In this document: piece by piece, positions 4,411-31,199 of the stretch
Layout: the number at the start of each line of letters is the position of its first letter
Position numbering within the stretch: position 1 is the stretch's first letter
Assembly (NCBI GenBank): GCA_028718845.1
Contig: JAQULA010000001.1
Location: 1-35,931 of the forward strand
Source: Candidatus Omnitrophota bacterium
Lineage (GTDB): Bacteria; Omnitrophota; Gorgyraeia; B26-G9
Length of the DNA: 35,931 nt
Direction of reading: 5' to 3'
Translations under genes and position numbers: made by a program
The notes under the pieces: model-generated
What the model was told of the DNA's origin: nothing
Seen by the model: only the letters and a program-made list of their open reading frames with translations
Databases searched by the model: none

Positions 4411-4897
4411 CGCGCTGGTAAAATTTTTCAGTGCTTTACCCCCGGAATGGGTGGTGGTGGTCATTGCCGCGCTGCCGGTTTCCGAACTGCGCGGAGCGAT
4501 TCCCACCGGAATTTTATACGGGATGCCGCCGCTTAAGGTATTTCTGCTGTCGATAGCCGGTAACATGCTGCCGATCCTGCCGTTATTGTATTTTTTAGAG
4601 CCGGTATCGGTGAAATTGCGGAGCGTCGGTATCTGTAAGAAATTTTTTGACTGGTTGTTCGAACATACGAAGAAGAAATCCGAACTTATCGAAAAATACG
4701 AATTACTCGGCCTGATGCTGTTTGTCGCGGTACCTCTGCCGATGACCGGGGCCTGGACCGGCAGTATTGCCGCGTCATTATTCGGCTTGGATAAAAAACG
4801 TTCATTTTGGGCCGTGGGTGCCGGGGTGGTTATTGCCGCGGTGGTGGTTACGGCGCTGACGCTGTGCGCCAGGGGATTTTTTACGCATGCAGGATAA
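4403..4897 (+). CDS. small membrane protein, COG2426 / putative small multidrug export-like family
   Basis: I use the internal ATG at 4403 (MNDALVKFF...), which overlaps the pcm stop by 8 nt. The tracked 4322 start would overlap the pcm coding sequence. LPVSELRGAIPTGI plus four hydrophobic segments fit this family. Confidence 0.6.
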   Translation: MNDALVKFFSALPPEWVVVVIAALPVSELRGAIPTGILYGMPPLKVFLLSIAGNMLPILPLLYFLEPVSVKLRSVGICKKFFDWLFEHTKKKSELIEKYELLGLMLFVAVPLPMTGAWTGSIAASLFGLDKKRSFWAVGAGVVIAAVVVTALTLCARGFFTHAG

Positions 4898-6914: not shown

Positions 6915-7001
6915 TTTCAAAAACCGAAGGACTAAGACGAAAAAGCTGGCTGTAACGTAATTATTATAAAAAGATTAAGGATAAAAGATTAAAAAATTAA
7001 T

Positions 7002-7029
7002 TTGACAAAAAAACAAGCGGTGTTAATAT
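7002..7029 (+). promoter_or_regulatory. near-consensus sigma70 promoter (TTGACA-16 nt-TAATAT)
   Basis: TTGACA at 7002-7007 and TAATAT at 7024-7029, in an AT-rich intergenic region after priA. In such an AT-rich context this could be a chance match. Confidence 0.4.
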
Positions 7030-7087
7030 GGATTCATAACGTATTGTTTAACTATGGATTACATAAAAGGATGGTTTTCGGTGAAAG

Positions 7088-7120
7088 GCCAGGGAAGGAA
7101 GTCCCTGGCTTTTATTGTTT
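7088..7120 (+). terminator. rho-independent terminator-like hairpin (priA terminator and/or leader attenuator)
   Basis: An 8-bp stem (GCCAGGGA 7088-7095 pairing with TCCCTGGC 7102-7109) with a 6-nt loop, followed by TTTTATTGTTT. Confidence 0.5.
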
Positions 7121-7153
7121 CCGGTAATTGGACATAACTATGTTAGGATAATC

Positions 7154-8821
7154 ATGTTCAATAGATACAAAGACTTAGTTAAAAGCGATGCTTTGATTTT
7201 AAGCATCGTTTTTTTATGGTTTTCAAGCCTAGTATATTTTAATCCACGGCTATTTTCTTTACTGATCGGGAAAGAACCTTGGGCGGCCAAAATATCCGTT
7301 ATTATATTCATTTTGACCCTTAATGCAATGTGGCTTTACGCGTTTTATCACGGAATATACGTTGTTTTCTCTTTCTTTTATCGTTCTAAACCTTTTTCGG
7401 AAAATATATTAGACAAAGGGTGTTCCCCGCCGGTGGCAGTGCTTTATCTTACCAAAAACGATTTTAACGAAACCGCGTGCCGAAGTTGTCTGGATCAAGA
7501 TTATACGCCGATGTGTTTAATTATTTGTGATGACGGCGATGATGCCGAGATCAAGAAAAAGATAGATACGTTTGCCGGAGAAAATCAAGAGAAGGTGCGG
7601 GTTATTCGCCGGAAGATAAAAAAAGGATATAAAGCAGGCAATATAAATCATGCTTTAAAGTCTCTTGATGTAAAATACAGCTATGTTTTAATTATGGATG
7701 CGGATGGAATGCTTCCGAAGGATTTTTTGCGTTCGCTGATGCCGTATTTTAACCGCAATCCCAAAATCGCGTTTGTGCAGGCTATGCAGAAAAGTTTGCC
7801 GGACCAAAAAGGAGATTTGGGAAATGATTTAAAGTCAATGGTGGATATCCATTGGCGTTATTACGTATCGTTGAAAAATAGATTTGGTTTTGTTATGTGG
7901 TACGGTCATGGGGCGGTTTTGAAAAGGCAGATTATCGAAGAACTGAGAGGCATCCCGGAAGTTGTAACCGAAGATCTCGCGTTTTCATCGGAAGTCCGGC
8001 GTTTAGGCTATTATGGAATTGTGGCTGAAAATGTTTTCTGTGGAGAGGAATTCCCGCGGACTCTTACGCAATACCGCAAGCGTAACCGGAAATGGGTGAG
8101 GGGAACCTGTGAATATTTATTAAAATTTTTTCCGAAGTTATTACAGGATCCAGCGGTTCATTGGTTTGAGAAAGCGGATGTGTTTATTTCCGCTTTTGCC
8201 CTGCTGCAGGCTTTGCCGTTTTTGATATTTGTTCTGGTCGCAAGTTCGATAATTCCTTATTTTTATGCCCGGTTTCAGATGCAAGGGCCGTTGTTTCTGG
8301 TGCCGCCGTTATTTTACGGCGGGTGGATGGATGTCATTTTAAAAACACGTTACAATGTTTTTTGGGTCTGGGATTTTTATCTGATCATGTTTATCGTAAT
8401 TTTTTTTCCGCTTTTGCCTGCCGTTCAGTTGTTTTGGAAGGATAAAAAGCAGATGCTGCGTTATATAGCGTTGGCTGCTTTTGTGCATCTTTCGATTCTG
8501 CTGGATTCAGCCAAAGAAATGATCTTGTTTTTATCTACCGGAAAAACTTTTTTCCCGGTAACCAATAATTACCGGGATAACCAAGACGCTCTGGGGTGGT
8601 TGTTGTTCGAGTTTCTCAGCGGAGCATTTATGCTTGTTTGCGCAGTGAAAACCGCTAATTTGTGGTTGGTTTCATTGGGGGTATCGTTTATGGTGACGAT
8701 ACTGCTTGCTTTAAAAATGCACACGGCAGTTATAAGAAAGCTTATGTACATCCCGTTTTCGGTGACCGTGCTGATCATGTTTTTTATTGGGATGACAATT
8801 GTGAAGAATTTTAAACTATAG
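7154..8821 (+). CDS. membrane-embedded processive family 2 glycosyltransferase (OpgH/BcsA-like glycan synthase)
   Basis: Start moved to ATG 7154 (AGGA RBS 5 nt upstream). Motifs are ICDDGDD, IMDADG, VVTEDLAF and PRTLTQYRKRNRKWVRG (a QxxRW-type motif; compare OpgH PPTLxxxxKRDRRW as I recall it). There are N-terminal and multiple C-terminal TM helices. The gene is AT-rich. Confidence 0.75.
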   Translation: MFNRYKDLVKSDALILSIVFLWFSSLVYFNPRLFSLLIGKEPWAAKISVIIFILTLNAMWLYAFYHGIYVVFSFFYRSKPFSENILDKGCSPPVAVLYLTKNDFNETACRSCLDQDYTPMCLIICDDGDDAEIKKKIDTFAGENQEKVRVIRRKIKKGYKAGNINHALKSLDVKYSYVLIMDADGMLPKDFLRSLMPYFNRNPKIAFVQAMQKSLPDQKGDLGNDLKSMVDIHWRYYVSLKNRFGFVMWYGHGAVLKRQIIEELRGIPEVVTEDLAFSSEVRRLGYYGIVAENVFCGEEFPRTLTQYRKRNRKWVRGTCEYLLKFFPKLLQDPAVHWFEKADVFISAFALLQALPFLIFVLVASSIIPYFYARFQMQGPLFLVPPLFYGGWMDVILKTRYNVFWVWDFYLIMFIVIFFPLLPAVQLFWKDKKQMLRYIALAAFVHLSILLDSAKEMILFLSTGKTFFPVTNNYRDNQDALGWLLFEFLSGAFMLVCAVKTANLWLVSLGVSFMVTILLALKMHTAVIRKLMYIPFSVTVLIMFFIGMTIVKNFKL

Positions 8822-8839
8822 TTAGAAAGGAGTGCGTGT

Positions 8840-10093
8840 ATGAAAATACGGCCGGGATTTTTGTTCCGTTTCATGGTTTTGTCGGTGATCGCGCTGGCGG
8901 TTTTAGTTATGGGGTTTGAGAACGGGTACTCAGCGTTTGGGTATAATTATTTAAAACAGAGGGAATATGATAAGGCAATTCAATCTTTTGTGATGGCCAA
9001 TAACTATTCCGGGCTGGGCCTGACGTATTTGAAGAGAAAGATGTACCAGGATGCGGAAGAAGCGTTTCGATTGGTAAACGATAAAAAGGGCCTGGGCTTG
9101 GTGTATCTGCAAAAGCATGAGCATAACCGGGCATTGGAATATTTTAAAAGTGTCGAAGATTATGCTGGAGTTGGGCTGGTGTTATGTTCTCAGCATAAAT
9201 ATAAAGAAGCGTTGGAGGAAATGAAAAAACAATCCGATTTTACGGCCGCAGCCCACGCGTATATGGGCATGGGGCAATATCGCAAGGCAATACAGCTCTT
9301 CGAAAGTGCCAATGATTATTCCGGCTTGGGCCTGGCATATTTAAGTAAAGGCGACCGCGAAAAAGCACGGGAATGTTTTGAGCGGAACCTGGATTATTCC
9401 GGCTTGGGGCTGGTAGCTTTGCGGAATGGAAATTTTAAACAGGCACGGGAGTATTTTCAGAAAGAAAACGACGTACAAGGTCTTGGCTTGCTGGCATTGA
9501 ATCGGGGGCATTATACTTTGGCAATAAAATATTTTTTGGAGGCAAATGATAAAAGCGGTATCGGCAAGGCTTATTTTAAGATGGGTAACTATGCTCTGGC
9601 GAAACAATACTTTATGGAGGCCAACGATTATGATGCTTTGGGCGACATGTATTTTTCCTTGCGTGGATTCGACAAGGCTTTCGTGTGTTTTGAAAAAGTC
9701 GGGAATAAGGTGAAAGCTCTGCAATGTTTACGGGAAAAGAAGGACCCTGCGGCGGCGAGTGCCTATGCCGAACAGGCGATTCAAGCCGGGGAAATGGTCC
9801 CGGAATTGCGCCTGCAATTGGGGGAAATTTACCGGTCGGAAAAAAAATTCGATCTGGCCGAGACGCAATTTCGCGTGGTTATGCAAATGGAGGAAATGGA
9901 AGAAGACGGTTTGTTGTATCTGGGGCGTTTGCAGTTCGATACGGGTAAATATTCGGAAGCTTTGACCACGTTCCAATCTTTGCTTTCAAAATATCCGGAT
10001 ACCCGTTACGCGGTTGATGTGCAAATTTCTCTGAAGACCATCAAGACGCTTGCGGGCTTAATCGAAAAAAATAAAAACCAATCGGAATTGTAA
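8840..10093 (+). CDS. membrane-anchored/secreted TPR-like repeat protein with ten 26-residue repeats
   Basis: AAAGGAG RBS and an N-terminal hydrophobic anchor. Residues 28-287 form ten back-to-back 26-aa units (consensus NDYSGLGLaYLxxGxyxxAxxyFxxA), followed by ordinary TPR-like helices. It starts 18 nt after the GT2 stop. Confidence 0.7.
   Translation: MKIRPGFLFRFMVLSVIALAVLVMGFENGYSAFGYNYLKQREYDKAIQSFVMANNYSGLGLTYLKRKMYQDAEEAFRLVNDKKGLGLVYLQKHEHNRALEYFKSVEDYAGVGLVLCSQHKYKEALEEMKKQSDFTAAAHAYMGMGQYRKAIQLFESANDYSGLGLAYLSKGDREKARECFERNLDYSGLGLVALRNGNFKQAREYFQKENDVQGLGLLALNRGHYTLAIKYFLEANDKSGIGKAYFKMGNYALAKQYFMEANDYDALGDMYFSLRGFDKAFVCFEKVGNKVKALQCLREKKDPAAASAYAEQAIQAGEMVPELRLQLGEIYRSEKKFDLAETQFRVVMQMEEMEEDGLLYLGRLQFDTGKYSEALTTFQSLLSKYPDTRYAVDVQISLKTIKTLAGLIEKNKNQSEL
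8921..9700 (+). repeat. 10 x 78-bp (26-codon) in-frame coding repeats, diverged at DNA level
   Basis: Hand alignment of the translation shows ten consecutive units of exactly 26 residues with no indels. Confidence 0.8.
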
Positions 10094-10112
10094 CCGGAAG
10101 GGGGGGGTAACC

Positions 10113-13100
10113 ATGAAATTTGTCGGTGGACTAAAGATATTATTTTTGATCGGTACGATTTTTTGTATTGTTTTATTGGTTGGATCAGTTTCGCCATCGG
10201 TTGCTTCTCAATCCGATCCGGATGGTCCGGATGACCATGGGATTTGTCCCTCCGGAGGAGAGCAAGATGATGGTCCGGAAGATCCCGATGACGGGCAGGA
10301 AGATGATGACCATCATGAAGACCCGGTGTCGGTAACCGGAGGGAAAATATTTATCCCGGAAACCGATCTGGAGCTTAACGGCAACGGCAAAAAGACTGGG
10401 GTTGCTTATCTGGTATTTAAACGTTTTTTTTCTTCCCAGTCGGCTTTTTCCGGCGCTTTAGGCCGTGGATGGTCGACAACCGCGGATATTCAGGTGCAGG
10501 AAACTGATGTTGGTGTGACTATCCGCACGGCATTGGGCAGGAAGTTGAATTTTGTTAAAGATTCGGATGGAGCATACAGGAATCCGGAATGCGGGTACAG
10601 CACCTTAACCAAGATTGATAGCGATACTTTTGAATGGACTCTGAGGAGAGGAGCGGAATATGTATTTAAACGTTCCGGGCTGGCGACAGAGCCGGAACTG
10701 TTTCGTGTTCAAACCATTGACGATCGCTATGGAAATCGAATAAAGTTTGAATACCTGGAATTTAACGATCAATCCTTGGGAGGGCTGGTGAGCAAACCGG
10801 TGCGTATTGTCGAACCGGCAACCAACCGTTTTATCCGGATCAATTGGCGGGAGTATTATAACGGGCAAGAAAATGTGTATTTGGTTGAATCGATTGAAGA
10901 TAGCGCAGGAAGGAAAGTCAGTTATGAGTATGATTTGGCTTTTAATGTTTTCAAAGGGTACGATGCCAGTTTGACAAGGGTGACTGATCCCGAAGGCAAT
11001 ATTCAAAGATACGAACATGTTTTTGAAGATACCCCGGACACCACGATCTTGCGCGGTTTTGAAGTTACCGATAAAAAAGGCAATACGACAACATATAATT
11101 TCAACGAACCGTACACTTCGGCCATGGATTACCCGGATTGGAATTGGAACCTGCGGGTGGAGTCGGTGGTTGATCCCTGCGGCGGAACCATGAGTTTTGT
11201 TACAGATGAACTTTTGGGGGTGACCGTATATACGGATAAAGAGGGCAATGCCGCGGTATACGATTATTCGCGGATGCTTTTGGACAGCGCGGTATATGCC
11301 GACGGTAGAAATAAGCGATATGTTTATGACTATTTTCGCAATCTTGTGAAATTTACCGATACTGCTGGGAATGAATGGAATTACGAATATGACGGATTAA
11401 AAAATATTACCAAGCGAGTCGATCCCTTGGGATATTCCGAAGAATGGACATATGAGTCACAATACAGTAAGTGGATAATCAAGAAAGACAAAAACAATAA
11501 TACCTGGCAGCGCGGTATCGACGAAACAGGTTCTATTATTAATGAAACCGATCCGCAAGGTAAAGTAATTCACTATACCTATGATAATTTCGGCAATTTG
11601 CTGACCAAGACCGATGCCATGGGTTATACCATGGTTTATACGTATGATATATTCGGAAATATGGCATCAAAAACCGATGCCGAGGAAAATGCATGGGTTT
11701 ATACCTATGATACGGTGGGCAATTTATTAAGCGAAACCGATCCGCGCGGCAATGTTGTTTCTTATACTTATGATAAACTCGGACGGATGTTGACCAAGAC
11801 TGCTTCAGGCGGAGAAAACGAATCTTTTGTATATGATGCCGAGGGTAATTTAATAACGCAGACCGATGCTCAGGGTAATATTACGCGCTACACATATGAT
11901 GCTATGGACCGCAGGATCGCAGTTCGTTTTGCCGACAATACGGAAATAACCTATGCCTACAATGCCATGGGCAAATTGATCACCGAACATAAACCGAACG
12001 GTACCTGGACCTATGGCTATGATGAACGTAATCGCCGGACCTCGGTTACGGATCCGTTGAACAATACCACTACGTTTACCTATGCCGGGTTGGAGGGCTG
12101 CGGCGGCTGCGGCTCCGGAGATAAGATCGCTGGGATTACGGATGCCCGTGGTAATACGACTACGTTTACCTATGATCCCTTGGGCAGAAAAATTCTGGAA
12201 AAAGACATGTATAACAATGCCGATGAATATGTATATGATGCCAACGGCAATCTGATTGAGGCGATTGACAAAATCGGCAGTCATACGATTTATACTTATG
12301 ACAATCTGAACCGGTTGATCGGCATCACTAATCCGCTGGGGGAAAAGGCAGAGATCGGCTATGATGCCAACGGCAACAAAACCCAGGTAAAAGACGCCAA
12401 AGGAAATGTCAGTCAATATGCTTACGACCGAAATAATCGTTTAGTGCAGATAACTGATGCGTTAAGCGGACAGACGCGGTTCGGCTATGATGCCGCGGGC
12501 AACCGGATAACCTTGACCGACGCCGCAGGGAACCATACCGAGTACGATTATGAAAGTCATAACCGTCTGGCCCGGGAATCCGACGCATTCGGCGCAAGCC
12601 AAATGTTCGAATATGATAATAACGGAAATTTACTTAAAAAAATCAATGCCCGGACAGATGAGATCGCTTATGAATATGACGAAAGGACCCGGATTCATTC
12701 CAAAACCGTGCTTGGTGATGGACAGGTGATCTACACCTATGATGAAGCGGGAAATGTTCTTTCGGCAACCGATCCTATTGGCACGCGGACTTTTGCTTAT
12801 GATAACCTGGACAGGCTGGTAAGCGTGACGTATCCCGGCGGACTTGCGCTGCGTTATGAATATGACGCGGTTGGCAATCGCAGTAAATTGATCTATCCCT
12901 CAGGGACCACGGTAACCAACGCATACGATGCGAATAACCGGCTTTCCGGAACAATAATTGACGGAGGCGGTACGCAAAAGGTTTTTTCTTTTGCTTATGA
13001 TGCAAAAGGCCGCAGGACACAGTTGTCATATCCGAACAATGTAATTACGACCTATGCCTATGACCCGTTGGACCGGGTCCTTTCGATTACCACCGGCAAA

Positions 13101-14537
13101 GCGGAGTTTCCCGGCAGTATCTTGGATATCCGCTACACCTACGATGCGGCAGGCAATCGTATCCAGCGTATTGACAATGCCGGGACACATGCGTATGCTT
13201 ATGACGCTTTGAACCAACTGATCAATGTCGTTTATCCGGACAATACCAGCCAGGCCTATGGTTTCGACGCCGTAGGGAATCGGCTGTCTTTGAATGAAAG
13301 CGGTATTTTTCCGGAGTCGGTTTCCGGTTCGTTCAATGCGCTCAACCAGTTGGAACGGGTAACCAGTTCTACTTATAACGGCGGTACACTCGGTTCGATA
13401 AGCGGAACCTGGGCGGATACCAACATCGACGCGATTACCGTTAACGGAAGTTTTGCAACTATCCGCAATGGTGTGTTCGTGGCGGATAATCTTCAGCTTG
13501 TACCCGGAGCGAACACCTTGAATATATCAGCCGAAGACAAGGCCGGCAATATTACCCAGACAACGCTGGATGTGGTTTTGGACAATACTGCCAAGGCTGT
13601 TTACACCTATGACCCAGACGGCAATCTCAAGACATCATCAGTAAAAGGAGTTACCTGGACCTATACCTGGAACGCGGAGAGCAAGCTGATACGCGCGGCC
13701 TCCAGCAGCGGGAAGGTAATTGATTACGGCTACTACGACGACGGCAACCTTGCGTTCCGGCAGGACAGCAGCGGCAAGGTTGTCTATGTTTATGACGGCA
13801 TCCACTGCATCGCGGAATATGATGAGAGCGGAGCGTTGCTCAAGGAATACGTCTACGGCCCGAACGTGGATGAAGTGCTGTGCGCGCAGACCCCGGCCGG
13901 CGGGGTAGCCTATTATCATCAGGATGCGTTGCAGAGCGTAACAGTGTTGACGGATGGGTTTGCCAACAAGATTACAGACTATGAATACGATGTTTATGGC
14001 GCAGTGACGAAAACAACCAGTGCCACGGACAATCAGATCTTGTTTACCGGCCGGTGGCTGGATAGTGATACTAATCTTTATTACTACAGAGCGAGGTGGT
14101 ACGACGTAAGTAGCGGGAGGTTTGTTAGCTGTGATCCGATTGGAGTAATGGGCGGGGTGAATCTGTATGGGTATTGCGGAAATAATTCAGTAAAGTTTAT
14201 TGATCCGTATGGATTGTTAAAATGGTATGGAAATTGGGGAGGACCTAAATGGAGTGGAGGTAAAGAGGTTTCTCTTGAAAATCTTAGCCCTGAAGAGAGA
14301 AACAAATTAAAGGCACCCATAGATGATAGGGATAGATGCTATATGCTGCATGATTATTGCTATTTTTCCTGTGTAGGATTATGTGATAATAAACAAAGAA
14401 TTTCATGTAAAAAAGGTTGTGATCATAACTTAGGCCTTTGTTTACAACAGGCTAAAGATGGCGGGGATCAAAATATCTCTAGTGAAGAAATTAACTTTTT
14501 TAAATCTGAGAAAAATCCATGGATTTATATGAATTAA
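10113..14537 (+). CDS. Rhs/YD-repeat polymorphic toxin with Sec signal peptide, acidic linker and PLA2-like C-terminal tip
   Basis: The N-terminus has a signal peptide (ILFLIGTIFCIVLLVGSVSPSVASQ) and then a D/E/P-rich linker. Dozens of YD repeats follow (YTYDxxGNL, YxYDxxNRL). The RHS core end is YYYRARWYDVSSGRFVSCDPIG...VKFIDPYGL (DPxGL at 14202-14216). A 106-aa tip occupies 14217-14534. Confidence 0.95.
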   Translation: MKFVGGLKILFLIGTIFCIVLLVGSVSPSVASQSDPDGPDDHGICPSGGEQDDGPEDPDDGQEDDDHHEDPVSVTGGKIFIPETDLELNGNGKKTGVAYLVFKRFFSSQSAFSGALGRGWSTTADIQVQETDVGVTIRTALGRKLNFVKDSDGAYRNPECGYSTLTKIDSDTFEWTLRRGAEYVFKRSGLATEPELFRVQTIDDRYGNRIKFEYLEFNDQSLGGLVSKPVRIVEPATNRFIRINWREYYNGQENVYLVESIEDSAGRKVSYEYDLAFNVFKGYDASLTRVTDPEGNIQRYEHVFEDTPDTTILRGFEVTDKKGNTTTYNFNEPYTSAMDYPDWNWNLRVESVVDPCGGTMSFVTDELLGVTVYTDKEGNAAVYDYSRMLLDSAVYADGRNKRYVYDYFRNLVKFTDTAGNEWNYEYDGLKNITKRVDPLGYSEEWTYESQYSKWIIKKDKNNNTWQRGIDETGSIINETDPQGKVIHYTYDNFGNLLTKTDAMGYTMVYTYDIFGNMASKTDAEENAWVYTYDTVGNLLSETDPRGNVVSYTYDKLGRMLTKTASGGENESFVYDAEGNLITQTDAQGNITRYTYDAMDRRIAVRFADNTEITYAYNAMGKLITEHKPNGTWTYGYDERNRRTSVTDPLNNTTTFTYAGLEGCGGCGSGDKIAGITDARGNTTTFTYDPLGRKILEKDMYNNADEYVYDANGNLIEAIDKIGSHTIYTYDNLNRLIGITNPLGEKAEIGYDANGNKTQVKDAKGNVSQYAYDRNNRLVQITDALSGQTRFGYDAAGNRITLTDAAGNHTEYDYESHNRLARESDAFGASQMFEYDNNGNLLKKINARTDEIAYEYDERTRIHSKTVLGDGQVIYTYDEAGNVLSATDPIGTRTFAYDNLDRLVSVTYPGGLALRYEYDAVGNRSKLIYPSGTTVTNAYDANNRLSGTIIDGGGTQKVFSFAYDAKGRRTQLSYPNNVITTYAYDPLDRVLSITTGKAEFPGSILDIRYTYDAAGNRIQRIDNAGTHAYAYDALNQLINVVYPDNTSQAYGFDAVGNRLSLNESGIFPESVSGSFNALNQLERVTSSTYNGGTLGSISGTWADTNIDAITVNGSFATIRNGVFVADNLQLVPGANTLNISAEDKAGNITQTTLDVVLDNTAKAVYTYDPDGNLKTSSVKGVTWTYTWNAESKLIRAASSSGKVIDYGYYDDGNLAFRQDSSGKVVYVYDGIHCIAEYDESGALLKEYVYGPNVDEVLCAQTPAGGVAYYHQDALQSVTVLTDGFANKITDYEYDVYGAVTKTTSATDNQILFTGRWLDSDTNLYYYRARWYDVSSGRFVSCDPIGVMGGVNLYGYCGNNSVKFIDPYGLLKWYGNWGGPKWSGGKEVSLENLSPEERNKLKAPIDDRDRCYMLHDYCYFSCVGLCDNKQRISCKKGCDHNLGLCLQQAKDGGDQNISSEEINFFKSEKNPWIYMN
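13653..14216 (+). repeat. master copy of the Rhs core-end repeat shared with the downstream orphan cassettes
   Basis: The block TWTYTWNAE...DPYGL recurs, fully or partly, at 15179-15610, 16999-17554, 18676-19269, 19815-20378 and 21258-21557. Confidence 0.9.
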
Positions 14538-14548
14538 TGGGAGGGAAC

Positions 14549-15142
14549 ATGTTTATATTATTTTTATATTTTTCACTGATATCTTTATGGCTTAACATTA
14601 TTTCAACTGTTTCATTTTTAGGGCAAATGGGGTATGGATCATTGGACATATTAACAAAACTTATGTTTTTTATTGGTTTTTTGCCTAGCAAATTGCTTGG
14701 TTTAATGCAAGGTGATTTTGCCAGATTTGCTTTCAGTTTTAAATTATATTTTATTAATATGTTGACATGGGGATTATTGGGATGCTTAATATGGGTGTTT
14801 TTAGTTAAAAGTATGCATGTAAAAGAAACAAAGATTAATTTAACAACGCGAAATTTGATTTGGGGGTTCTTAGCAGGTAATTTGTTGTCAATTTTAATTA
14901 TAATTTTTATTACAATGTTTAGCATTGATATTTTTCATCCGGTATTAGGCTTTATAATAGGGCCGATAGTCTTTTTTAAATTTTTTGCGAAGCAACAAGG
15001 AGCACTAGTTATCATCGAAAATATATATTATATCTTTTTAAGCACATATTTTTTTGAAATCACAGCTAAACATAGAAATAAATTTTTGTCAGTAATTTTT
15101 ATAATGCATTTGATTTTCGGAATTTTCGCGATTTTACTTTAG
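14549..15142 (+). CDS. polytopic membrane protein, candidate immunity protein for the main Rhs tip
   Basis: ATG 14549 is preceded by GGGAGGG and lies directly after the rhs stop (14537). The gene is very AT-rich and the product is almost entirely hydrophobic helices. I recognise no family. Confidence 0.55.
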   Translation: MFILFLYFSLISLWLNIISTVSFLGQMGYGSLDILTKLMFFIGFLPSKLLGLMQGDFARFAFSFKLYFINMLTWGLLGCLIWVFLVKSMHVKETKINLTTRNLIWGFLAGNLLSILIIIFITMFSIDIFHPVLGFIIGPIVFFKFFAKQQGALVIIENIYYIFLSTYFFEITAKHRNKFLSVIFIMHLIFGIFAILL

Positions 15143-15178
15143 TGCAAAATTAGCAGGCATAATCCTAATTTTAGATAA

Positions 15179-15610
15179 TATATTTACGACGGCATCCACT
15201 GCATCGCCGAGTATGACGAAACCGGGGCTTTGCTTAAGGAATACGTCTATGGCCCGAACGTGGATGAAGTGCTGTGCGCGCAGACTCCGGCAGGCGGGGT
15301 AGCGTATTATCATCAGGATGCGTTGCAGAGCGTAACAGCGTTGACGGATGGGTTTGCCAACAAGGTTGTATCTTACGAATATGATGTGTATGGTGCACTA
15401 ACCAAGACAGTTGGCACAATAGATAATCAGATCCTGTTTACCGGACGGTGGCTGGATAGTGATACTAATCTTTATTACTACAGAGCGAGGTGGTACGACG
15501 TAAGTAGCGGGAGGTTTGTTAGCTGTGATCCGATTGGGGTGATGGGCGGGGTGAATTTGTATGCGTATGTGGGGAATAATGGCGTAAACAGAATTGATCC
15601 TTTGGGGCTT
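15179..15610 (+). repeat. Rhs core-end repeat, copy 2 (5'-truncated, starts at YIYDGIHC)
   Basis: It aligns by eye to 13790-14216 of the main gene and ends at DPLGL (15596-15610). An in-frame TAA lies at 15176. Confidence 0.9.
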
Positions 15611-16036
15611 AAAGTTACGTGTAAGAGAAGTACTTGGGATCCTATTCTTCAGATAATAGATCCTTATGATGGCCCGATTGTAGACTCAAAAGTCGAGTGG
15701 CACTATAGGACAATAGGTGTTAAATTTTTGAGTGGGCCTGATTTTAGTAATAATGAAGATGGGTGTTTAGGATGCAAATGTATTCAAGAATATTTTAAAA
15801 TGGTAAAAATTTCAACGTATTTAGATTATTTGATTGAAAAAGCTACTGTAACATGTTTTGATGACGTAAATAACGCAACATGGATATATGATTTAACAAG
15901 AAGAAATGGACGTAGGTTCACGACAAAAAAAGAAGAATTCCCTGTGGTTCCAACTCAGTTTGAAGATCCAGGGATTGTATTAGGCAACGGAGCTTGCAAT
16001 TGTGAAACTGATGATGCGATTGTGTATGGCAAATAA
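15230..16036 (+). CDS. orphan rhs-CT cassette 1 (Rhs core end + 141-aa novel toxin tip)
   Basis: The tracked ORF begins at a TTG, and there is no ATG or RBS at the homology start. The core end is YYYRARWYDVSSGRFVSCDP...DPLGL. The AT-rich tip at 15611-16033 contains 7 Cys. Confidence 0.75.
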   Translation: MLKEYVYGPNVDEVLCAQTPAGGVAYYHQDALQSVTALTDGFANKVVSYEYDVYGALTKTVGTIDNQILFTGRWLDSDTNLYYYRARWYDVSSGRFVSCDPIGVMGGVNLYAYVGNNGVNRIDPLGLKVTCKRSTWDPILQIIDPYDGPIVDSKVEWHYRTIGVKFLSGPDFSNNEDGCLGCKCIQEYFKMVKISTYLDYLIEKATVTCFDDVNNATWIYDLTRRNGRRFTTKKEEFPVVPTQFEDPGIVLGNGACNCETDDAIVYGK

Positions 16037-16049
16037 AGTGGGGGTGGGT

Positions 16050-16973
16050 ATGAAAAAACTGCTATTATGTTTGGGTATTGGAATGCTTACATATATTTTT
16101 TTTGTTTCCGATGTTGTAGCCAATGAACTTTATTTTTCAACAGCCAAAGGATCAGTTACAACAGAAGAACAGGTTCTTTTCGAAGAAATGGCAGATGAAA
16201 ACGGGCAAACGTTGTTTGTTAAAAAAGAGCCTTTGTTTACCTACGAGGAAATTGTGTCGATTGAAATCGGAGAAAAGCTATCTGATGACGATAAATACTT
16301 AATTGCTTTTCAATTGAAGCCAGATAGCATTAATAAAATAGAAAAATTGTTTAATTCGGAAGTAGAGACAAGATTTGCGATTGTGTTAAACAGGAAGCTC
16401 CTGGGTGCCCCCTTTATGCGTAAAGGAATAATTCCATCTGTAATTACCGCTACAATAAAAATGGATGAAATGCGATTAAAGGAACTGAAAGCGGTGAGAG
16501 AGAAAATAATGGAAGTAATCCCAGGGGTACAAAACACAAGGAATAATTCCGAGGGGGCTTCTTCTGTTAGAATGGAAGAGCAGGGTGATAAGCTGATCGA
16601 CAATGGCGATTATAAACAAGCTATTACGTGGTTTATTAAATTACATGAGCAGTTCCCCGATAACCCGACTTATTATGAAAAAATAGGTTTTTGTTATTTT
16701 CTCTTGAAAGATTATAAAAAAGCGATAGATAATCTTTGCCGTGCCAGGCAGTTAACTGCGAAAGAAAACCAGTGGAAGATTGTGATGATGATTGCCAAGT
16801 CATATCAGTTGCAAGGGGATCGTAGACGTGCAGTCCTTGAAATGGAAAAGGAGATTAAATTTTTTGATAATTACTTAAAGAATAAGTTAGCGACAGATGA
16901 TTCAAAACTGTTTTTTCAGATTAGGAAAAAAATATTTGAAGATGAACTAAAAGTGCTGAAGGCCGAAAAGTAA
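16050..16973 (+). CDS. secreted TPR-containing protein, candidate immunity 1
   Basis: ATG 16050 (MKKLLLCLGIGMLTYIFFVSDVVA, a signal peptide) starts 14 nt after the orphan 1 stop. C-terminal TPR-like helices include GDYKQAITWFIKLHEQFPDNPTYY and KDYKKAIDNL. Confidence 0.55.
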   Translation: MKKLLLCLGIGMLTYIFFVSDVVANELYFSTAKGSVTTEEQVLFEEMADENGQTLFVKKEPLFTYEEIVSIEIGEKLSDDDKYLIAFQLKPDSINKIEKLFNSEVETRFAIVLNRKLLGAPFMRKGIIPSVITATIKMDEMRLKELKAVREKIMEVIPGVQNTRNNSEGASSVRMEEQGDKLIDNGDYKQAITWFIKLHEQFPDNPTYYEKIGFCYFLLKDYKKAIDNLCRARQLTAKENQWKIVMMIAKSYQLQGDRRRAVLEMEKEIKFFDNYLKNKLATDDSKLFFQIRKKIFEDELKVLKAEK

Positions 16974-16998
16974 ATACGCGATTTTGTAGCCGGCACCC

Positions 16999-17554
16999 CT
17001 ATACCTGGAACGCGGAGAACAAGCTGATACGCGCGGCCTCCAGCAGCGGGAAGGTGATTGATTACGGCTACTACGACGACGGCAATCTGGCGTTCCGGCA
17101 GGACAGCAATGGCAAGGTTGTCTATATTTACGACGGCATCCACTGCATCGCCGAGTATGACGAAACCGGGGCTTTGCTTAAGGAATACGTCTATGGCCCG
17201 AACGTGGATGAAGTATTGTGCGCGCAGACTCCGGCCGGCGGGGTTTTCTATTACCACCAGGATGCTTTGCAGAGCGTGACGGCATTGACCGATGGATTCG
17301 CCAACAAGATTACAGACTATGAATACGATGTTTACGGCGCAGTGACGAAAACAACCAGTGCCACGGACAATCAGATCTTGTTTACCGGCCGGTGGCTGGA
17401 TGTGGAGACAGGGTTGTATTATTACCGGGCGCGGTGGTATGATTCGGAAACCGGGAGGTTTATCAGCTGTGATCCGATTGGGGTGATGGGCGGGGTGAAT
17501 TTGTATGGGTATTGCGGAAATAATGGTGTCAATAATACTGACCCATTGGGATTA
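16999..17554 (+). repeat. Rhs core-end repeat, copy 3
   Basis: YTWNAENKLIRAASSSGKVIDYGYYDDGN ... DPLGL (17540-17554). Confidence 0.9.
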
Positions 17555-17884
17555 GAAGGATGGTATCATGATGTTTTTGATGACCCAGTTCGGTGTAATG
17601 GGAGTGATTCCTGTGAAGTGTTAAAAGCAAAACGATGGCATTTTATGCTAGTTTTAGCTGCGCGTCTAACTGAAAAGGCCTGGAGAATAAGTCAAGGGTT
17701 GTCTGTAGATGAAGGGCATGATCGGGCGATAGAGTCAACTTTTCAAGGAATTAAGCGTTGTTCTGATTTAATAAAAATTATTTGTAGAAAAACTAAATGC
17801 GATGATAAAAAAGAATATTTTGATGATTCATCCGTGTTGCCCAAAATTACAACAGTTACACCGCCGCCAATGTCAGGTTTTTAA
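17054..17884 (+). CDS. orphan rhs-CT cassette 2 (Rhs core end + 109-aa novel tip)
   Basis: The tracked ORF starts at a GTG, but homology to the main rhs begins earlier in the same frame (about 16999). The tip at 17555-17881 (EGWYHDVFDDPVRCNGSDSCEVLKAKRWHF...) is helical-looking and unrecognised. Confidence 0.75.
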   Translation: MIDYGYYDDGNLAFRQDSNGKVVYIYDGIHCIAEYDETGALLKEYVYGPNVDEVLCAQTPAGGVFYYHQDALQSVTALTDGFANKITDYEYDVYGAVTKTTSATDNQILFTGRWLDVETGLYYYRARWYDSETGRFISCDPIGVMGGVNLYGYCGNNGVNNTDPLGLEGWYHDVFDDPVRCNGSDSCEVLKAKRWHFMLVLAARLTEKAWRISQGLSVDEGHDRAIESTFQGIKRCSDLIKIICRKTKCDDKKEYFDDSSVLPKITTVTPPPMSGF

Positions 17885-17942
17885 AACTGGTTTTGGAAGC
17901 GGAACATTAATAAAAAAATAAATTGTATTATGGGGGATAAAA

Positions 17943-18608
17943 ATGGAAAAACTTACTTTTGAAGAATGGATTTCCTGGATTTTTAATCATGAAGTTGTTA
18001 AACCAGCATGGTTTTATGGTATTAATGCTCCTTTTTATGAGTTGAATCATGATCTCTCAGTGCAATATGTTACACGATTATTCCAAGAAGCAGGAGAAAA
18101 ACTATCTGTATTTTCTGATGAGCAAGTTAACCAAGGATTGTATTTTTTAATTGATCCTGGGGCATCGGGGATTATCTGTCAAGCTGTTGTCAATGATGTC
18201 GAATTAAATAAAGTGAGGGAATTAATTTTTACAATTAACAATATATATTCAAATATTTTCTTCAAAAGATGTACTCCCTATTTAAGTCATTTGAACGAGT
18301 CAGGAGTTGGCGCACTTAATCCCGTTTGTTATATGTGGTGGGATGTTTCAGCATTTGGTTCTTTAGGCAGGAATACAAATAGCGAAGAATCTATCTTGGA
18401 GGCTTGTTTGGAAACGATGCGAAAAATACTTGAACTGCCGCATGATGCATGTCGAGAAAGTGCTTTGCATGGATTGGGACATTTGGTTCGAATGAATAGA
18501 AAAAAAACATTGTGCCAACATTTGATAGCTGAATTCTTAAGAAATAATTACTTGCGGCAAGAATTAAGGGATTATGCTAAAGCAGCCCAAAATGGGACTG
18601 CGCAATAA
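17943..18608 (+). CDS. cytoplasmic-looking protein, candidate immunity 2
   Basis: GGGGGA RBS. No signal peptide or TM segment. It directly follows orphan 2, is AT-rich, and belongs to no family I recognise. Confidence 0.5.
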   Translation: MEKLTFEEWISWIFNHEVVKPAWFYGINAPFYELNHDLSVQYVTRLFQEAGEKLSVFSDEQVNQGLYFLIDPGASGIICQAVVNDVELNKVRELIFTINNIYSNIFFKRCTPYLSHLNESGVGALNPVCYMWWDVSAFGSLGRNTNSEESILEACLETMRKILELPHDACRESALHGLGHLVRMNRKKTLCQHLIAEFLRNNYLRQELRDYAKAAQNGTAQ

Positions 18609-18645
18609 ATTTTTAAAGGAATAGCTTAACCAAAGTGTCAAATAG

Positions 18646-19443
18646 TTGGCATGGAAGATGGGCCTTGCCGGCACCACCTGGACCTATACCTGGAACGCGG
18701 AGAACAAGCTGATACGCGCGGCCTCCAGCAGCGGGAAGGTGATTGATTACGGCTACTACGACGACGGCAACCTTGCGTTCCGGCAGGACAGCAGCGGCAA
18801 GGTTGTCTATGTTTATGACGGCATCCACTGCATTGCCGAGTATGACGAGACCGGTGGCTTGCTTAAGGAATATGTTTACCCCGTGAGCCCTGCGGGCAAC
18901 GGGGCAAGTGGACCGAATGTGGACGAGGTGCTGTGCACACTGGAATCGAGCGGCGGCGTATCCTATTATCATCAGGATGCGTTGCAGAGCGTGGTGGTGT
19001 TGACGGATGGGTTTGCCAACGAGGTGGTATCATACGAATATGATATATACGGCGCGCTAACTAAGACAGTTGGCACAAAGGATAATCAGATCTTATTTAC
19101 CGGCCGGTGGCTGGATAGCGATACTAATCTTTATTACTACAGAGCGAGGTGGTACGACGTAAGTAGCGGCAGGTTTATCAGCCGGGATCCGATTGGGATA
19201 ATGGGCGGGGTGAATTTGTATGGGTATGTTGGGAATGAGCCGGTACGGTTCGTTGATCCTTTAGGACTGAGTCGGGATGTATGGGGATGTCAGTTGTTGT
19301 ATGAACGAGATAACGTGTGCAGTAATCTATTCAAATTTTGCGTTTATGCTTGCCAAAAAGCCGAAGGAGATACTGGACTGCGTATTAAAAAAGTAAAGTG
19401 GCTAAAATGTATTCCGTGTTTAAAAAATTGGTTAATATTATAA
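18646..19443 (+). CDS. orphan rhs-CT cassette 3 (Rhs core end + 57-aa Cys-rich tip)
   Basis: The tip at 19270-19440 is SRDVWGCQLLYERDNVCSNLFKFCVYACQKAEGDTGLRIKKVKWLKCIPCLKNWLIL (6 Cys). An in-frame ATG at 18658 sits just before the repeat. Confidence 0.7.
   Translation: MAWKMGLAGTTWTYTWNAENKLIRAASSSGKVIDYGYYDDGNLAFRQDSSGKVVYVYDGIHCIAEYDETGGLLKEYVYPVSPAGNGASGPNVDEVLCTLESSGGVSYYHQDALQSVVVLTDGFANEVVSYEYDIYGALTKTVGTKDNQILFTGRWLDSDTNLYYYRARWYDVSSGRFISRDPIGIMGGVNLYGYVGNEPVRFVDPLGLSRDVWGCQLLYERDNVCSNLFKFCVYACQKAEGDTGLRIKKVKWLKCIPCLKNWLIL
18676..19269 (+). repeat. Rhs core-end repeat, copy 4 (with a short insertion YPVSPAGNGAS)
   Basis: TWTYTWNAENKLIRAASSSGKVIDYGYYDDGN ... DPLGL (19255-19269). It shares the upstream junction GCCGGCACC with copy 3. 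Confidence 0.9.
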
Positions 19444-19452
19444 GGAGAAAAA

Positions 19453-19806
19453 ATGGAAGAAAATAAACTTAATGCACCAATAGATATGTTAATTAAAAAA
19501 ATTTTGTTTTGGGCTTTGATGTCAATGTCCACAGTGTTTATTTTAAATGCGATTATCCCCCAGCAAACACTTAATGAATTTACGAAAAATCCGAATTTTT
19601 TATACATATTCTTTTTTATGGGTCTTTGGTGGAGTTCTCTTATTCTTATTTTTGTTGGAAGCATATTGGGAACTATTAGGGGTATAGTAATTTTCAAGAA
19701 ATATAGATTTAGTTTGTTGTTAAAAAAAGAGGCTATCTATTTGTGGTGTTCCATTTCCGTACTCTTGTTAATCATCTGTATTTTGCTGATGTATCTTTTG
19801 TTATAG
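19453..19806 (+). CDS. small 3-TM membrane protein, candidate immunity 3
   Basis: AAGGAG RBS. It starts 9 nt after the orphan 3 stop and has three hydrophobic helices. Confidence 0.5.
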   Translation: MEENKLNAPIDMLIKKILFWALMSMSTVFILNAIIPQQTLNEFTKNPNFLYIFFFMGLWWSSLILIFVGSILGTIRGIVIFKKYRFSLLLKKEAIYLWCSISVLLLIICILLMYLLL

Positions 19807-20633
19807 AAAACAGTTGGTGGACCTATACCTGGAACGCGGAGAACAAACTGATCCGCGCGGCCTCCAGCAGCGGAAAAGTAACTAATTACGGCTATTACGA
19901 TGACGGGAATTTGGCGTACCGGCAGGATATCAACGGCAAGGTTGTCTATATTTACGACGGCATCCACTGCATTGCCGAGTATGACGAAAGCAATGCCTTG
20001 CTCAAGGAATACGTCTACGGCCCGAACGTGGATGAAGTGCTGTGCGCGCAGACTCCGGCAGGCGGGGTAGCGTATTATCATCAGGATGCGTTGCAGAGCG
20101 TAACAGCGTTGACGGATGGGTTTGCCAACAAGGTTGTATCTTACGAATATGATGTGTATGGTGCACTAACCAAGACAGTTGGCACAATAGATAATCAGAT
20201 CCTGTTTACCGGACGGTGGCTGGATAGTGATACTAATCTCTACTACTATAGGGCAAGATGGTATGATTCGGAAGCAGGGAGGTTCGTTTCCCGGGATCCG
20301 ATTGGGGTAATGGGCGGGGTGAATTTGTATGGGTATTGCTTAAATAATTCGATTAAGTTTAATGATCCTAAAGGGCTATGTGGAATTCCAATCCTGCCGC
20401 CTAAGATGCCCGATGTAGTTAATCCTAACTGGGGAGAAGGAATAAATAATAGAAATATGCACGAAAGTGGATATATCATGTGTTATCTTGCAAGTTCTGA
20501 GATTGTATTTGATGAGGATGCTTGCATGAAATTTAAATGCATATATGAATGTGAGGATGGTTCAATTGTACAGATAGGGCACGTATCTGAGTGTGAAGCA
20601 ATTCATTTTCTTCCCTACACGCCAATAGATTAA
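19743..20633 (+). CDS. orphan rhs-CT cassette 4 (Rhs core end + 84-aa Cys-rich tip)
   Basis: The tracked GTG start overlaps the immunity 3 gene, and real homology starts near 19815. The tip at 20379-20630 is CGIPILPPKMPDVVNPNWGEG...CIYECEDGSIVQIGHVSECEAIHF (7 Cys). Confidence 0.7.
   Translation: MVFHFRTLVNHLYFADVSFVIENSWWTYTWNAENKLIRAASSSGKVTNYGYYDDGNLAYRQDINGKVVYIYDGIHCIAEYDESNALLKEYVYGPNVDEVLCAQTPAGGVAYYHQDALQSVTALTDGFANKVVSYEYDVYGALTKTVGTIDNQILFTGRWLDSDTNLYYYRARWYDSEAGRFVSRDPIGVMGGVNLYGYCLNNSIKFNDPKGLCGIPILPPKMPDVVNPNWGEGINNRNMHESGYIMCYLASSEIVFDEDACMKFKCIYECEDGSIVQIGHVSECEAIHFLPYTPID
19815..20378 (+). repeat. Rhs core-end repeat, copy 5
   Basis: WTYTWNAENKLIRAASSSGKVTNYGYYDDGN ... DPKGL (20364-20378). 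Confidence 0.9.
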
Positions 20634-20646
20634 GGAGATAAGAGCT

Positions 20647-21201
20647 ATGAAGAACATTATTTGTTTAAAAAAAGTTGACGGACAGTGGATGATTCTTATG
20701 AATTATGTTTTATTTGAAGTGTCAATTGTTTTTCTTAAAGGAATGCCTAGATTGTCTTGCTTAATAAATTATGCGGATTGGAAGAGGCTATTGATTAAGA
20801 TGCTGATACAAAAGAAGAATCATTCGCAAAGAAAAAAAGAAGGTAAAATTTTACAAAAAATCGGCAGGGATATTTGTTATATATCGGATAAGCCGTTGGA
20901 GATATTGTTGCCGTCAGATGAGCTGGAATCTAAAAATAATTTTAAGCTTACCAAAGAAGATAAAAAAACTGGCATGTCTAAATATATCGCTGTGGAAATA
21001 AGCAATGTTACGATTCATTTTCACAGAAACATGTTTGTAAAATTTCGGGATGCCTTATTGGATGCAAATCAGGTTCTGGAAAAACGGCTGGAAATATTGA
21101 CCGGTAATAAAGAATGTAAAAGGGCTATGATTAAAAAAATAGAAGAAGGTAAAGTGAAACAGGTGGTAGTAAGAGGAAATATTATTAAAAACAATTATTA
21201 G
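20647..21201 (+). CDS. Lys-rich soluble protein, candidate immunity 4
   Basis: AAGGAG RBS 7 nt upstream. It directly follows orphan 4, is AT-rich, and belongs to no recognised family. Confidence 0.45.
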   Translation: MKNIICLKKVDGQWMILMNYVLFEVSIVFLKGMPRLSCLINYADWKRLLIKMLIQKKNHSQRKKEGKILQKIGRDICYISDKPLEILLPSDELESKNNFKLTKEDKKTGMSKYIAVEISNVTIHFHRNMFVKFRDALLDANQVLEKRLEILTGNKECKRAMIKKIEEGKVKQVVVRGNIIKNNY

Positions 21202-21257
21202 AATTAAGAATAGGATTTAGAGGGGGCCTTGTTCAAAGTTATTGAATACCATATGCT

Positions 21258-21599
21258 TATGACCAAGATGGCAATCTCAAGGCATCATCAGTAAAAGGAG
21301 TCACTTGGACTTACACTTGGAACGCTGAGAATAAACTTACGCGTGCGGCCTCCAGCAGCGGGAAGGTGATTGATTACGGTTATTACGATGACGGCAACCT
21401 CGCGTTCCGGCAGGACAGCAGCGGCAAGGTTGTCTATGTTTATGACGGCATCCACTGCATCGCGGAATATGATGAGAGCGGAGCGTTGCTCAAGGAATAC
21501 GTCTACGGCCCGAACGTGGATGAAGTGCTGTGCGCGCAGACCCCGGCCGGCGGGGTATCACGCCCGGTGGCACGAGCCGCAGAGGGCAGGTTTGTTTAG
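21258..21599 (+). pseudogene. decayed rhs remnant with no toxin tip, marking the end of the array
   Basis: YDQDGNLKASSVKGVTWTYTWNAENKL...CAQTPAGGV matches main rhs 13611-13907, including a 156-bp block I read as identical (21402-21557 vs 13752-13907). Homology then breaks. A frameshifted trace, YHARWHEPQRAGLF, resembles YYRARWYDSEAGRF. Confidence 0.8.
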
Positions 21600-21639
21600 G
21601 ATAAGCGGAAATATTATAATAAGTAAAGGGGAGGTGTGT

Positions 21640-22344: not shown

Positions 22345-22347
22345 AAG

Positions 22348-22740: not shown

Positions 22741-22811
22741 AATGTAATTATAGCGCAGATGGTTTTTCTATCAAGTAAAAAGCCATATTTGGAGAAGGAA
22801 CGGTTATCTTA

Positions 22812-23981: not shown

Positions 23982-24030
23982 CAGTTAATAACCGTTGATA
24001 ACCATTATTAACCGAGGGTAACCGTATCGA

Positions 24031-31181: not shown

Positions 31182-31199
31182 GCCGGGTACAAGGCAAAG

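Follow-up and report, generated by a model that had tools for sequence, protein, structure and literature searches.

A conserved cassette of a glycan synthase, a TPR-like protein and a signal-peptide Rhs toxin points to type VI-independent handling of Rhs toxins

How is an Rhs toxin with a signal peptide handled by the cell, and why should its gene stand directly downstream of a polysaccharide synthase gene? These questions are raised by a 35,931-nucleotide stretch of DNA (contig JAQULA010000001.1 of a Candidatus Omnitrophota assembly), which is called the window here. It encodes a membrane-integrated processive synthase of glycosyltransferase family 2 (GT2, 555 residues, 7154..8821), a solenoid protein that resembles tetratricopeptide repeat (TPR) proteins (TPR-like, 417 residues, 8840..10093) and an Rhs polymorphic toxin of 1474 residues (10113..14537). 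All three genes are on the forward strand with gaps of 18 nt and 19 nt, as the original prediction had stated and the gene coordinates confirm, and both junctions have purine-rich ribosome-binding sites. No signature neighbour genes were listed for Sec-dependent polymorphic toxins by Zhang et al. 2012 (PMC3482391).

The linkage was followed in representative genomes, which were scanned with the GT2 and then searched with the window proteins by tblastn. In all loci with three separate genes (type A) that lay on long enough contigs, the order was GT2, TPR-like and Rhs. About ten distinct loci share this order; they come from Omnitrophota, Auribacterota and a genome bin labelled "Planctomycetia". 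It was complete in L001/L021 (the "Planctomycetia" bin), in L002/L020, L003 and L008 (Omnitrophota) and in L004/L018 (Auribacterota), L018 being the L004 sequence as part of a 627-kb scaffold. Look-ups that started from protein matches brought in L018 and also L011 and L012 from an "uncultured bacterium" bin, with a GT2 of 47% identity; L011 has the same order and a giant adhesin-like gene upstream. Short contigs showed partial loci with GT2 and TPR-like (L005), an immunoglobulin-like (Ig-like) gene and GT2 (L009), a giant gene and GT2 (L012) or TPR-like and Rhs (L022). The last of these came from an independent metagenome scan with the TPR-like alignment, which returned four loci: two duplicates (L001 and L002), one spurious hit and L022. 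A word-index search with the TPR-like protein gave three relatives only, with generic TPR words swamping the search.

The gaps between the genes were mostly between -17 and +43 nt; the exceptions are two longer GT2-to-TPR distances, 156 nt in L011 and 297 nt in L003. The genes stay adjacent and closely spaced over GT2 identities from 84% to about 35% and in different phyla. The pairwise identities of the three proteins co-vary with r = 0.93-0.97 in 45 pairs from ten loci, pairs that are not independent of each other, so that p-values mean little, and no shuffling of partners among the three genes was visible. In a neighbour-joining tree of the GT2 proteins, type A and the fused type B described below were sister clades, and the Rhs-linked GT2s formed one clade. 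Two bins have two cassettes each, and every cassette has its own GT2: S2.42 carries L003 (type A) and L029 (type B), whose GT2s are 34% identical, and the Auribacterota bin RS_1_24 carries the copies L004 and L009. The association that had been proposed from the window is found in the relatives as a linked unit in types A and B, with its neighbourhood conserved. Taken together, these comparisons show, at the level of sequence, that the three genes are passed on as one unit, and in both types they have stayed together through deep divergence and transfer between phyla.

Outgroup GT2s without an Rhs gene were found in L010, L024, L016 and L013. They still lie beside TPR proteins and large secreted proteins that are Ig-like, invasin-like or PGAP1-lipase-like. 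Since the outgroups have the GT2-TPR pair as well, this pairing is older than the link to Rhs. L010 (963-10689) and L024 show a conserved gene set of their own, with a large Ig-like protein, a protein of 226-235 residues, a PGAP1-like alpha/beta-hydrolase of ~730-790 residues, a TPR protein of ~705 residues and then the GT2. The large Ig-like protein of L010 has Glucodextran_B/Big_1 matches. This set may correspond to the Rhs cassette, with a lipase as the effector.

In the fused loci (type B), a single open reading frame (ORF) begins 8-14 nt after the GT2. This was found in L014/L015, L025 and L029, where the GT2 identities are 40%, 38% and 38%, respectively; L007 and the P0023 locus look like type B but are truncated. 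The fused ORF encodes, in this order, a leader, about thirty 26-residue repeats, C-terminal TPRs, a Peptidase_C39 domain, DUF6531, the Rhs repeats and a tip. Peptidase_C39 was matched at 5.5e-23 in L014 (residues ~825-960) and at 7.5e-17 in P0123, the protein of L029. In the three divergent fusions (L014, L025 and L029), the C39 domain is immediately followed by a conserved EGG motif. In the alignment, this motif falls on the leader-cleavage region of the split Rhs proteins, and a similar DP..PDG segment comes next. C39 peptidases cleave after double glycines. The EGG motif is a candidate double-glycine self-cleavage site at which the C39 domain probably cuts, and the split and the fused architectures would then plausibly both yield a free Rhs protein with an equivalent N-terminal tail. 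C39-like domains in polymorphic toxins have been discussed by Zhang et al. 2012 (PMC3482391).

The C39 domain also forms the end of TPR-like-C39 proteins of 628-661 residues, and its carriers include P0127, P0133 and P0135. The TPR-like protein of the window has no C39 domain, which is a loss relative to its kin. In a third type of locus (type C), the gene for a TPR-like-C39 protein lies between those for a large LamG-like protein and an Rhs protein with an N-terminal hydrophobic helix. The large protein of L026 has a C-terminal domain that is related to the Ig-like protein of the window. Because of the TPR-Rhs fusions and the type C loci, the TPR-like protein is read as primarily a partner of Rhs, and its tie to Rhs is closer than that to the GT2. 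The fusion in particular is strong evidence for a dedicated Rhs partner. As it is also paired with the GT2, in the outgroups too, the repeat protein looks like a bridge between synthase and toxin.

The TPR-like protein was assigned with Pfam, NCBIfam, an AlphaFold2 (AF2) model and a fold search. It consists of an N-terminal hydrophobic helix, which may be a signal peptide or an anchor, about ten helical hairpins of 26 residues and three canonical TPRs of the YbgF/CpoB-like kind. TPR_1 and TPR_2 matched with their model positions 3-26 of 34 only, which corresponds to a shortened 26-residue unit. In the AF2 model (pLDDT 86.5), a long hydrophobic helix at the N-terminus precedes about 21 helices of 10 residues; the model is all-helical and contains no beta-barrel porin. 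The top fold matches were generic peptide-binding TPR superhelices such as OGT, the APC/C and designed CTPRs, and the export TPRs of AlgK, BcsC and PgaA were absent from the top 50 fold matches listed. The PgaA model scored 18.7 bits against a cut-off of 366.65, and the similarity to the TPRs of PrsT was weak (4.9e-08, below the cut-off). The family is small, with 10 cluster representatives below 1e-30 in an exhaustive single-sequence search. A role as immunity protein was considered and rejected, as the gene is upstream of Rhs and does not vary with the tips.

As a member of the Rhs polymorphic-toxin family, the Rhs protein itself is ordinary. Its shell was recognised by 19 copies of RHS_repeat (PF05593, 3.7e-120) and by YD repeats (TIGR01643, 3.4e-88). 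By inspection, the first 31 residues (10113..10205) were assigned as a signal peptide with a predicted cleavage after S-V-A; a leader with alanine at -1 and a small or aliphatic residue at -3 is kept in 8 Rhs homologues. The sequence after the leader end is SQSDPDGPDDHG, followed by a stretch rich in D, E and P that runs to DPVSVTGGK. In the alignment with the homologues, this acidic tail of the mature protein covers residues 32-69 (10206..10319). It starts with the motif (S/D)Q(T/S)xPDGPDDxGI, which is kept in the closer homologues, and it aligns with the linker that follows C39 in the fused proteins. DUF6531 precedes the Rhs repeats (10320..10553, Pfam 2.4e-12), and an Ig-like insert of the Glucodextran_B type interrupts the shell at residues 1095-1157 (13395..13583, Pfam 1.7e-08). 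The Rhs-associated core (13986..14216) was matched by TIGR03696 at 6.8e-24, above its cut-off of 32.5 bits, and ends with the autoproteolysis motif DPYGL at residue 1364. Pfam and NCBIfam scans of the Rhs protein found no PAAR or prePAAR, VgrG-binding, SpvB, TcdB or beta-propeller domain, and Pfam no cell-wall-binding domain. The description of the N-terminus as a leader plus an acidic D/E/P linker, rather than a PAAR, VgrG-binding or TcB-type domain, agrees with inspection, the eight homologues and the domain scans.

The search for parts of a type VI secretion system (T6SS) covered the 35.9-kb window and the related loci. None of the window ORFs scanned gave a match to a PAAR, VgrG, Hcp, Tss, SpvB, TcdB or TcA domain, in agreement with the earlier claim that T6SS, PAAR and Tc parts are missing from the window, and no vgrG, hcp, Eag-chaperone or tss gene was present in these ORFs or in the related loci.

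The GT2 was matched by Glyco_tranf_2_3 of Pfam at 9.7e-19. The NCBIfam models of CelA, MdoH and PgaC matched only far below their own cut-offs, the best MdoH score being 45.7 bits against cut-offs of at least 328, and membership in the OpgH, BcsA or PgaC families was rejected on these scores. BcsA is the nearest solved relative by sequence (41 bits). It was also the best Foldseek match (E 8e-17, TM-score 0.56-0.60) of the AF2 model, which was made from 46 homologues, reached a pLDDT of 89.9 and ends after the transmembrane bundle; hyaluronan synthases (HAS), cyclic-glucan synthase (Cgs), plant CesA and chitin synthase (Chs) came next. In the 46 homologues, D103, D126/D127, K160-A-G-N163, D182/D184 and E273-D274 were invariant, and R308, R310, K313 and W314 were at least 90% conserved. 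Because of the BcsA-type fold and the conserved catalytic motifs, the GT2 looks like an active, channel-forming polymer synthase that has no PilZ domain. The full BcsA-like transmembrane bundle and the RxxKW motif ruled out a polyprenyl-phosphate sugar synthase of the GtrB/Dpm1 kind. Domain scans of the GT2 and its neighbours found no PilZ, PgaD, Alg44, PelD or other cyclic di-GMP module, and the cassette encodes neither an OpgG-like protein nor a glycan-modifying enzyme. Of the original prediction of an OpgH/BcsA-like synthase, the BcsA/HAS fold stood and the OpgH part did not. The further proposal that the GT2 and the repeat protein form the minimal export layout of the Bcs, Pga or Opg systems was not borne out either, as there is no porin, no export TPR among those 50 matches and no cyclic di-GMP module.

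The C-terminal toxin tip of the Rhs protein (14217..14534) is cysteine-rich and contains YGNWGGPKWSGG and, further on, DRCYMLHDYCY. Of its 32 sequence matches in the PDB, 30 were secreted phospholipases A2 (PLA2), including all of the top ten, and they aligned weakly on the active site DRCCxxHDxCY, which suggests a PLA2-like tip. The start of the next ORF (14519..15142, forward strand) overlaps the Rhs stop. From its position and sequence, its hydrophobic product of 207 residues, read as a multi-pass membrane protein, is a candidate immunity protein. Direct-repeat families D1-D3 delimit an array of four orphan Rhs core-plus-tip modules at 15054..21609 on the forward strand, with ORFs at 15230-16036, 17054-17884, 18646-19443 and 19743-20633 and an unrelated small ORF after each module. 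With the main gene and a truncated Rhs core fragment (21310-21609, forward strand), the direct repeats give six copies of the 3' Rhs core. Five of these have mutually unrelated tips and a small ORF behind each, for which an immunity role is predicted, as is usual in Rhs tip-exchange arrays. Pfam gave no match to any of the toxin tips, to the immunity-like ORFs or to the Ig-like protein. Behind the first orphan tip lies an ORF (16002-16973) whose product combines a leader resembling a signal peptide with a segment like the SecDF P1 head and with TPRs, which is unusual for an immunity protein.

A secreted Ig-like protein of 234 residues (cluster C2, 21640..22344, forward strand) was connected to the cassette by tblastn: it is 37-47% identical to the product of a gene 1-3 nt 5' of the GT2 in relatives. 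Such a homologue ends 1-3 nt before the GT2 in L001, L002, L003, L004/L018, L008 and L009. In L011, the same Ig-like domain is the C-terminal end of a giant FG-GAP/cadherin-type protein of 4645 residues encoded upstream of the GT2. In the window, the gene is displaced to the distal end of the orphan array, beside the truncated Rhs core fragment. The cassette thus looks circularly permuted, a change that could have arisen by tandem duplication and deletion or by excision and re-integration. A truncated pseudogene was rejected, since every homologue ends at the same ...SPxxGxxVTGKTN terminus. Downstream lie a small Ig-like protein of the DUF1573 type (cluster C3, 22348..22740, reverse strand), which clusters with proteins of L004, L009 and L018 and was assigned by Pfam on the L018 member, and a thioredoxin-like membrane protein with a DsbD_2-like part (cluster C4, 22812..23981, forward strand; tblastn ~29%, Pfam DsbD_2 on the L018 member). 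C3 and C4 also flank the cassette in the Auribacterota loci L004, L009 and L018 (at ~7250-8750), and they might support disulfide formation in the cysteine-rich tips.

The GT2 start was placed at ATG 7154 with AGGA 6 nt upstream, an alternative being TTG at 7115. Between 6800 and 16200, the best promoter match (10/12) is TTGACA-16-TAATAT with an extended -10 TG at 7002..7029 on the forward strand. This site would correspond to the single promoter and leader of the original prediction, but promoter-like sites in the region are no commoner than in shuffled sequence, and the site is suggestive only. A scan for terminator-like elements found a 12-bp hairpin followed by a T-run in the GT2 leader (7084..7113, forward strand), which could be an attenuator or an RNA-stabilising element. 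It had no Rfam match, nor had the rest of the window, and it is not kept in the relatives, where the Ig-like gene abuts the GT2.

The cassette follows priA (4887-6914, forward strand), and fmt (24691-25635, forward strand) lies 3' of the whole region. The GC content is 0.39-0.49 from 7000 to 14000 and 0.34-0.49 in most of ~6900-24000, compared with 0.52-0.56 on either side. The shared AT-rich composition noted for the three genes was thus confirmed, and because the GC content is low against both flanks, the ~6900-24000 region looks like an island. The genes on either side correspond, at 55-67% identity and in the same order, to those of contig L003 from an Omnitrophota bin. Together with the lipid A acyltransferase and the secretin encoded in the window, this makes a diderm relative of Omnitrophota the most likely host. 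The island lies between priA and fmt in the window and downstream of fmt in L003. Straight after fmt, two tandem GalT-like paralogues of the galactose-1-phosphate uridylyltransferase/HIT family were found (25842-27865). Further on are an ExeA/MshM-like AAA_22 ATPase (30549-31181), an ORF with no Pfam match (31379-32185), the secretin with STN, Secretin_N and Secretin domains (32182-33969) and, from 33962, a coiled-coil repeat protein of more than 656 residues whose frame is open and runs past the window end. The secretin, an outer-membrane channel of the pilus or type II secretion system (T2SS) type, is 18 kb off and outside the AT-rich island. It is the sole candidate outer-membrane channel of the window.

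Among known systems, the Rhs protein of the window would work most like the Sec-dependent toxins of the WapA type (Bacillus subtilis; S. suis WapA, PMC12704120). Both have DUF6531, a YD/Rhs shell and a polymorphic tip with an immunity gene; WapA has a signal peptide and is independent of a T6SS, and by inspection of its leader the window Rhs is predicted to be alike in both respects. WapA belongs to a monoderm host and is retained on a cell-envelope polymer by its own wall-binding repeats, whereas the cassette has no wall-binding domain and a diderm host, and any retention would have to come from the separate GT2 and TPR-like proteins. T6SS Rhs effectors (P. aeruginosa Tse5, PMC10684867; Koskiniemi et al. 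2013) share DUF6531, the cage, the DPxGL core, the variable tip, the immunity gene and the orphan-tip array. They have PAAR/prePAAR or VgrG and chaperone partners and no signal peptide; the window Rhs, in contrast, has a Sec-type leader, an acidic tail and no T6SS parts in the window. Synthase-dependent exopolysaccharide systems (BcsA/B/C, PgaABCD, Alg8/44/K/E, OpgGH) also have an inner-membrane GT2 of the BcsA fold with D, DxD, TED and RxxKW motifs and a helical-repeat neighbour, but the cassette lacks their cyclic di-GMP receptor, TPR-porin, OpgG and modifying enzyme, and its repeat protein is no obvious conduit for glycan but partners the Rhs protein. The BC cocoons of the Tc (ABC) toxins likewise enclose a C-terminal toxin in an Rhs/YD cocoon and free it by an aspartyl autoprotease; the cassette differs in having no SpvB/TcdB N-terminal region, beta-propeller or TcA translocator. 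Bd0109 of Bdellovibrio bacteriovorus (PMC4267844) is a signal-peptide Rhs-repeat protein in the envelope of a predatory diderm without T6SS involvement. It differs in that it has no protease core and no tip, has the small disordered Bd0108 as partner and regulates pili, and no GT2 or TPR partner has been described for it.

Secreted proteins that are genetically coupled to the glycan that holds them occur in the PEP-CTERM/exosortase exopolysaccharide loci, in CdrA-Psl and in the rbm genes of V. cholerae. These matrix or sorted proteins are not toxins and use other sorting signals and other glycan pathways. A linkage of GT2, TPR and Rhs was not described in the literature found with the terms tried, in keeping with the original view that the arrangement is new, and recent papers on Omnitrophota deal with Tad pili and giant proteins without mention of this cassette.

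From these results, the following course can be proposed. The Rhs cage would be exported by Sec, and the TPR solenoid would be exported or anchored in the membrane, with the GT2 in the inner membrane. Near the synthase, the TPR superhelix would hold the acidic N-terminal tail of Rhs. The polymer that the GT2 produces, possibly with guidance from the Ig-like protein, would retain or present the cage on the envelope, by analogy with WapA, which is anchored to the wall in Gram-positive bacteria, and the tip would be delivered on contact to neighbouring or prey cells. In the fused relatives, C39 would cut at EGG and release an Rhs protein with an equivalent N-terminus. That the cassette is a conserved functional module with the TPR-like protein as Rhs partner is very probable. 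The glycan-display step is possible but rather doubtful. The whole, a conserved, horizontally mobile, type VI-independent Rhs cassette with glycan-assisted retention or display, is a reading that we prefer while holding it tentatively.

Several points weigh against this proposal. The GT2 is never fused to either partner, and its link is adjacency alone. The type C loci L026/L027 and L028 have TPR-like-C39 and then Rhs with no GT2 between, on contigs that, for L026 and L028, begin inside the upstream gene, so that a farther GT2 is possible. The cassette has no outer-membrane component by which the glycan or the ~160-kDa cage could cross. The PLA2 assignment of the tip is weak (best E = 0.17), and the cleavage of the signal peptide was predicted by inspection only. 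The AT-rich island and an integrase near L018 mean that part of the conservation could be due to hitchhiking. In the main rival, two separate functions travel together: the GT2, along with the Ig-like protein, would make a surface or capsule glycan, the TPR-like protein and Rhs would be a Sec-dependent module of their own, and the adjacency would come from common descent and island hitchhiking. The missing GT2 fusion, the type C loci, the outgroup GT2s that occur without Rhs and the AT-rich island with the integrase near L018 all fit such a history, as does the report that glycosyltransferases are common cargo of hypervariable loci in Omnitrophota (bioRxiv 10.64898/2026.06.07.730766). Against it stand the tight adjacency kept from 84% to ~35% GT2 identity and across phyla, the monophyly of the Rhs-linked GT2s and the paralogous cassettes within a bin, each of which keeps its own highly diverged GT2. 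We regard this rival as somewhat unlikely, though it has to be reckoned with.

The glycan could also act on the passage of the toxin rather than on its display. The TPR-like protein would then be a periplasmic holdase or chaperone for the Rhs cage (a C39-processed pro-domain in the relatives), and the GT2 polymer would help the cage to cross or leave the outer membrane, or would trigger its release, which would make a new secretion route. TPR proteins are known as secretion chaperones, the TPR-C39-Rhs fusions have the conserved EGG after C39, and the cassette holds no other exporter; yet glycan-driven protein export is without precedent, the cassette has no outer-membrane protein and the window type has lost C39 altogether, so that this seems decidedly improbable. 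Delivery by conventional means, through a T6SS elsewhere in the genome or the T2SS-type secretin, with the neighbouring genes irrelevant to it, would agree with the secretin and ExeA-like ATPase at 30549-33969 and with the class "T2SS/Sec-dependent" given to signal-peptide toxins by Zhang et al. 2012 (PMC3482391). But the Rhs protein has no PAAR, prePAAR or VgrG-binding domain, its cleavable Sec leader (by inspection, in 8 homologues) is hard to reconcile with cytoplasmic T6SS loading, Omnitrophota surveys report Tad and type IV pili with T6SS unmentioned (PMC10066038), and the secretin is 18 kb away outside the island; this explanation is less probable again. The least probable, and in our view very unlikely, is a protective glycan that shields the envelope of the producer from its own membrane-active tips, beside the immunity proteins. 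The PLA2-like tip of the window, the glycine-zipper, membrane-like tip of L014 and the constancy of the GT2 while the tips vary would suit a shield, but the tips are diverse across the loci and each has its own immunity-like ORF downstream, and the TPR-Rhs fusion and the translationally coupled Ig-like gene would be left unexplained. Our preferred reading remains the Rhs cassette with glycan-assisted retention or display.

For the delivery of signal-peptide Rhs toxins in Gram-negative bacteria, the catalogue has an entry under "Sec/T2SS" without signature accessory genes (PMC3482391). The cassette gives conserved candidates for this role: the TPR-like protein, whose partnership with Rhs is backed by the fusions, a glycan synthase of its own, an Ig-like protein and, in the relatives, a C39 domain. 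A stronger form of the proposal, which is unlikely, holds that the Ig-like protein, the GT2 and the TPR-like protein with or without C39 are an unrecognised pathway dedicated to the maturation of Rhs toxins and their placement on or passage through the envelope of diderms, with glycan polymerisation physically coupled to the presentation or release of the toxin. If such a dedicated pathway exists, it would be a new trafficking mode of polymorphic toxins beside the type V, VI and VII secretion systems and Tc, and if the glycan link is functional, exopolysaccharide synthesis would be tied to the deployment of interbacterial toxins. The cassette is small enough to be reconstituted in a model organism. 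Hosts like the Omnitrophota are thought to be predatory or parasitic, and their known attack machinery consists largely of Tad pili and giant proteins. In conclusion, the cassette, of interest to the fields of polymorphic toxins and of predatory nanobacteria, points to an undescribed, T6SS-independent handling of Rhs toxins.

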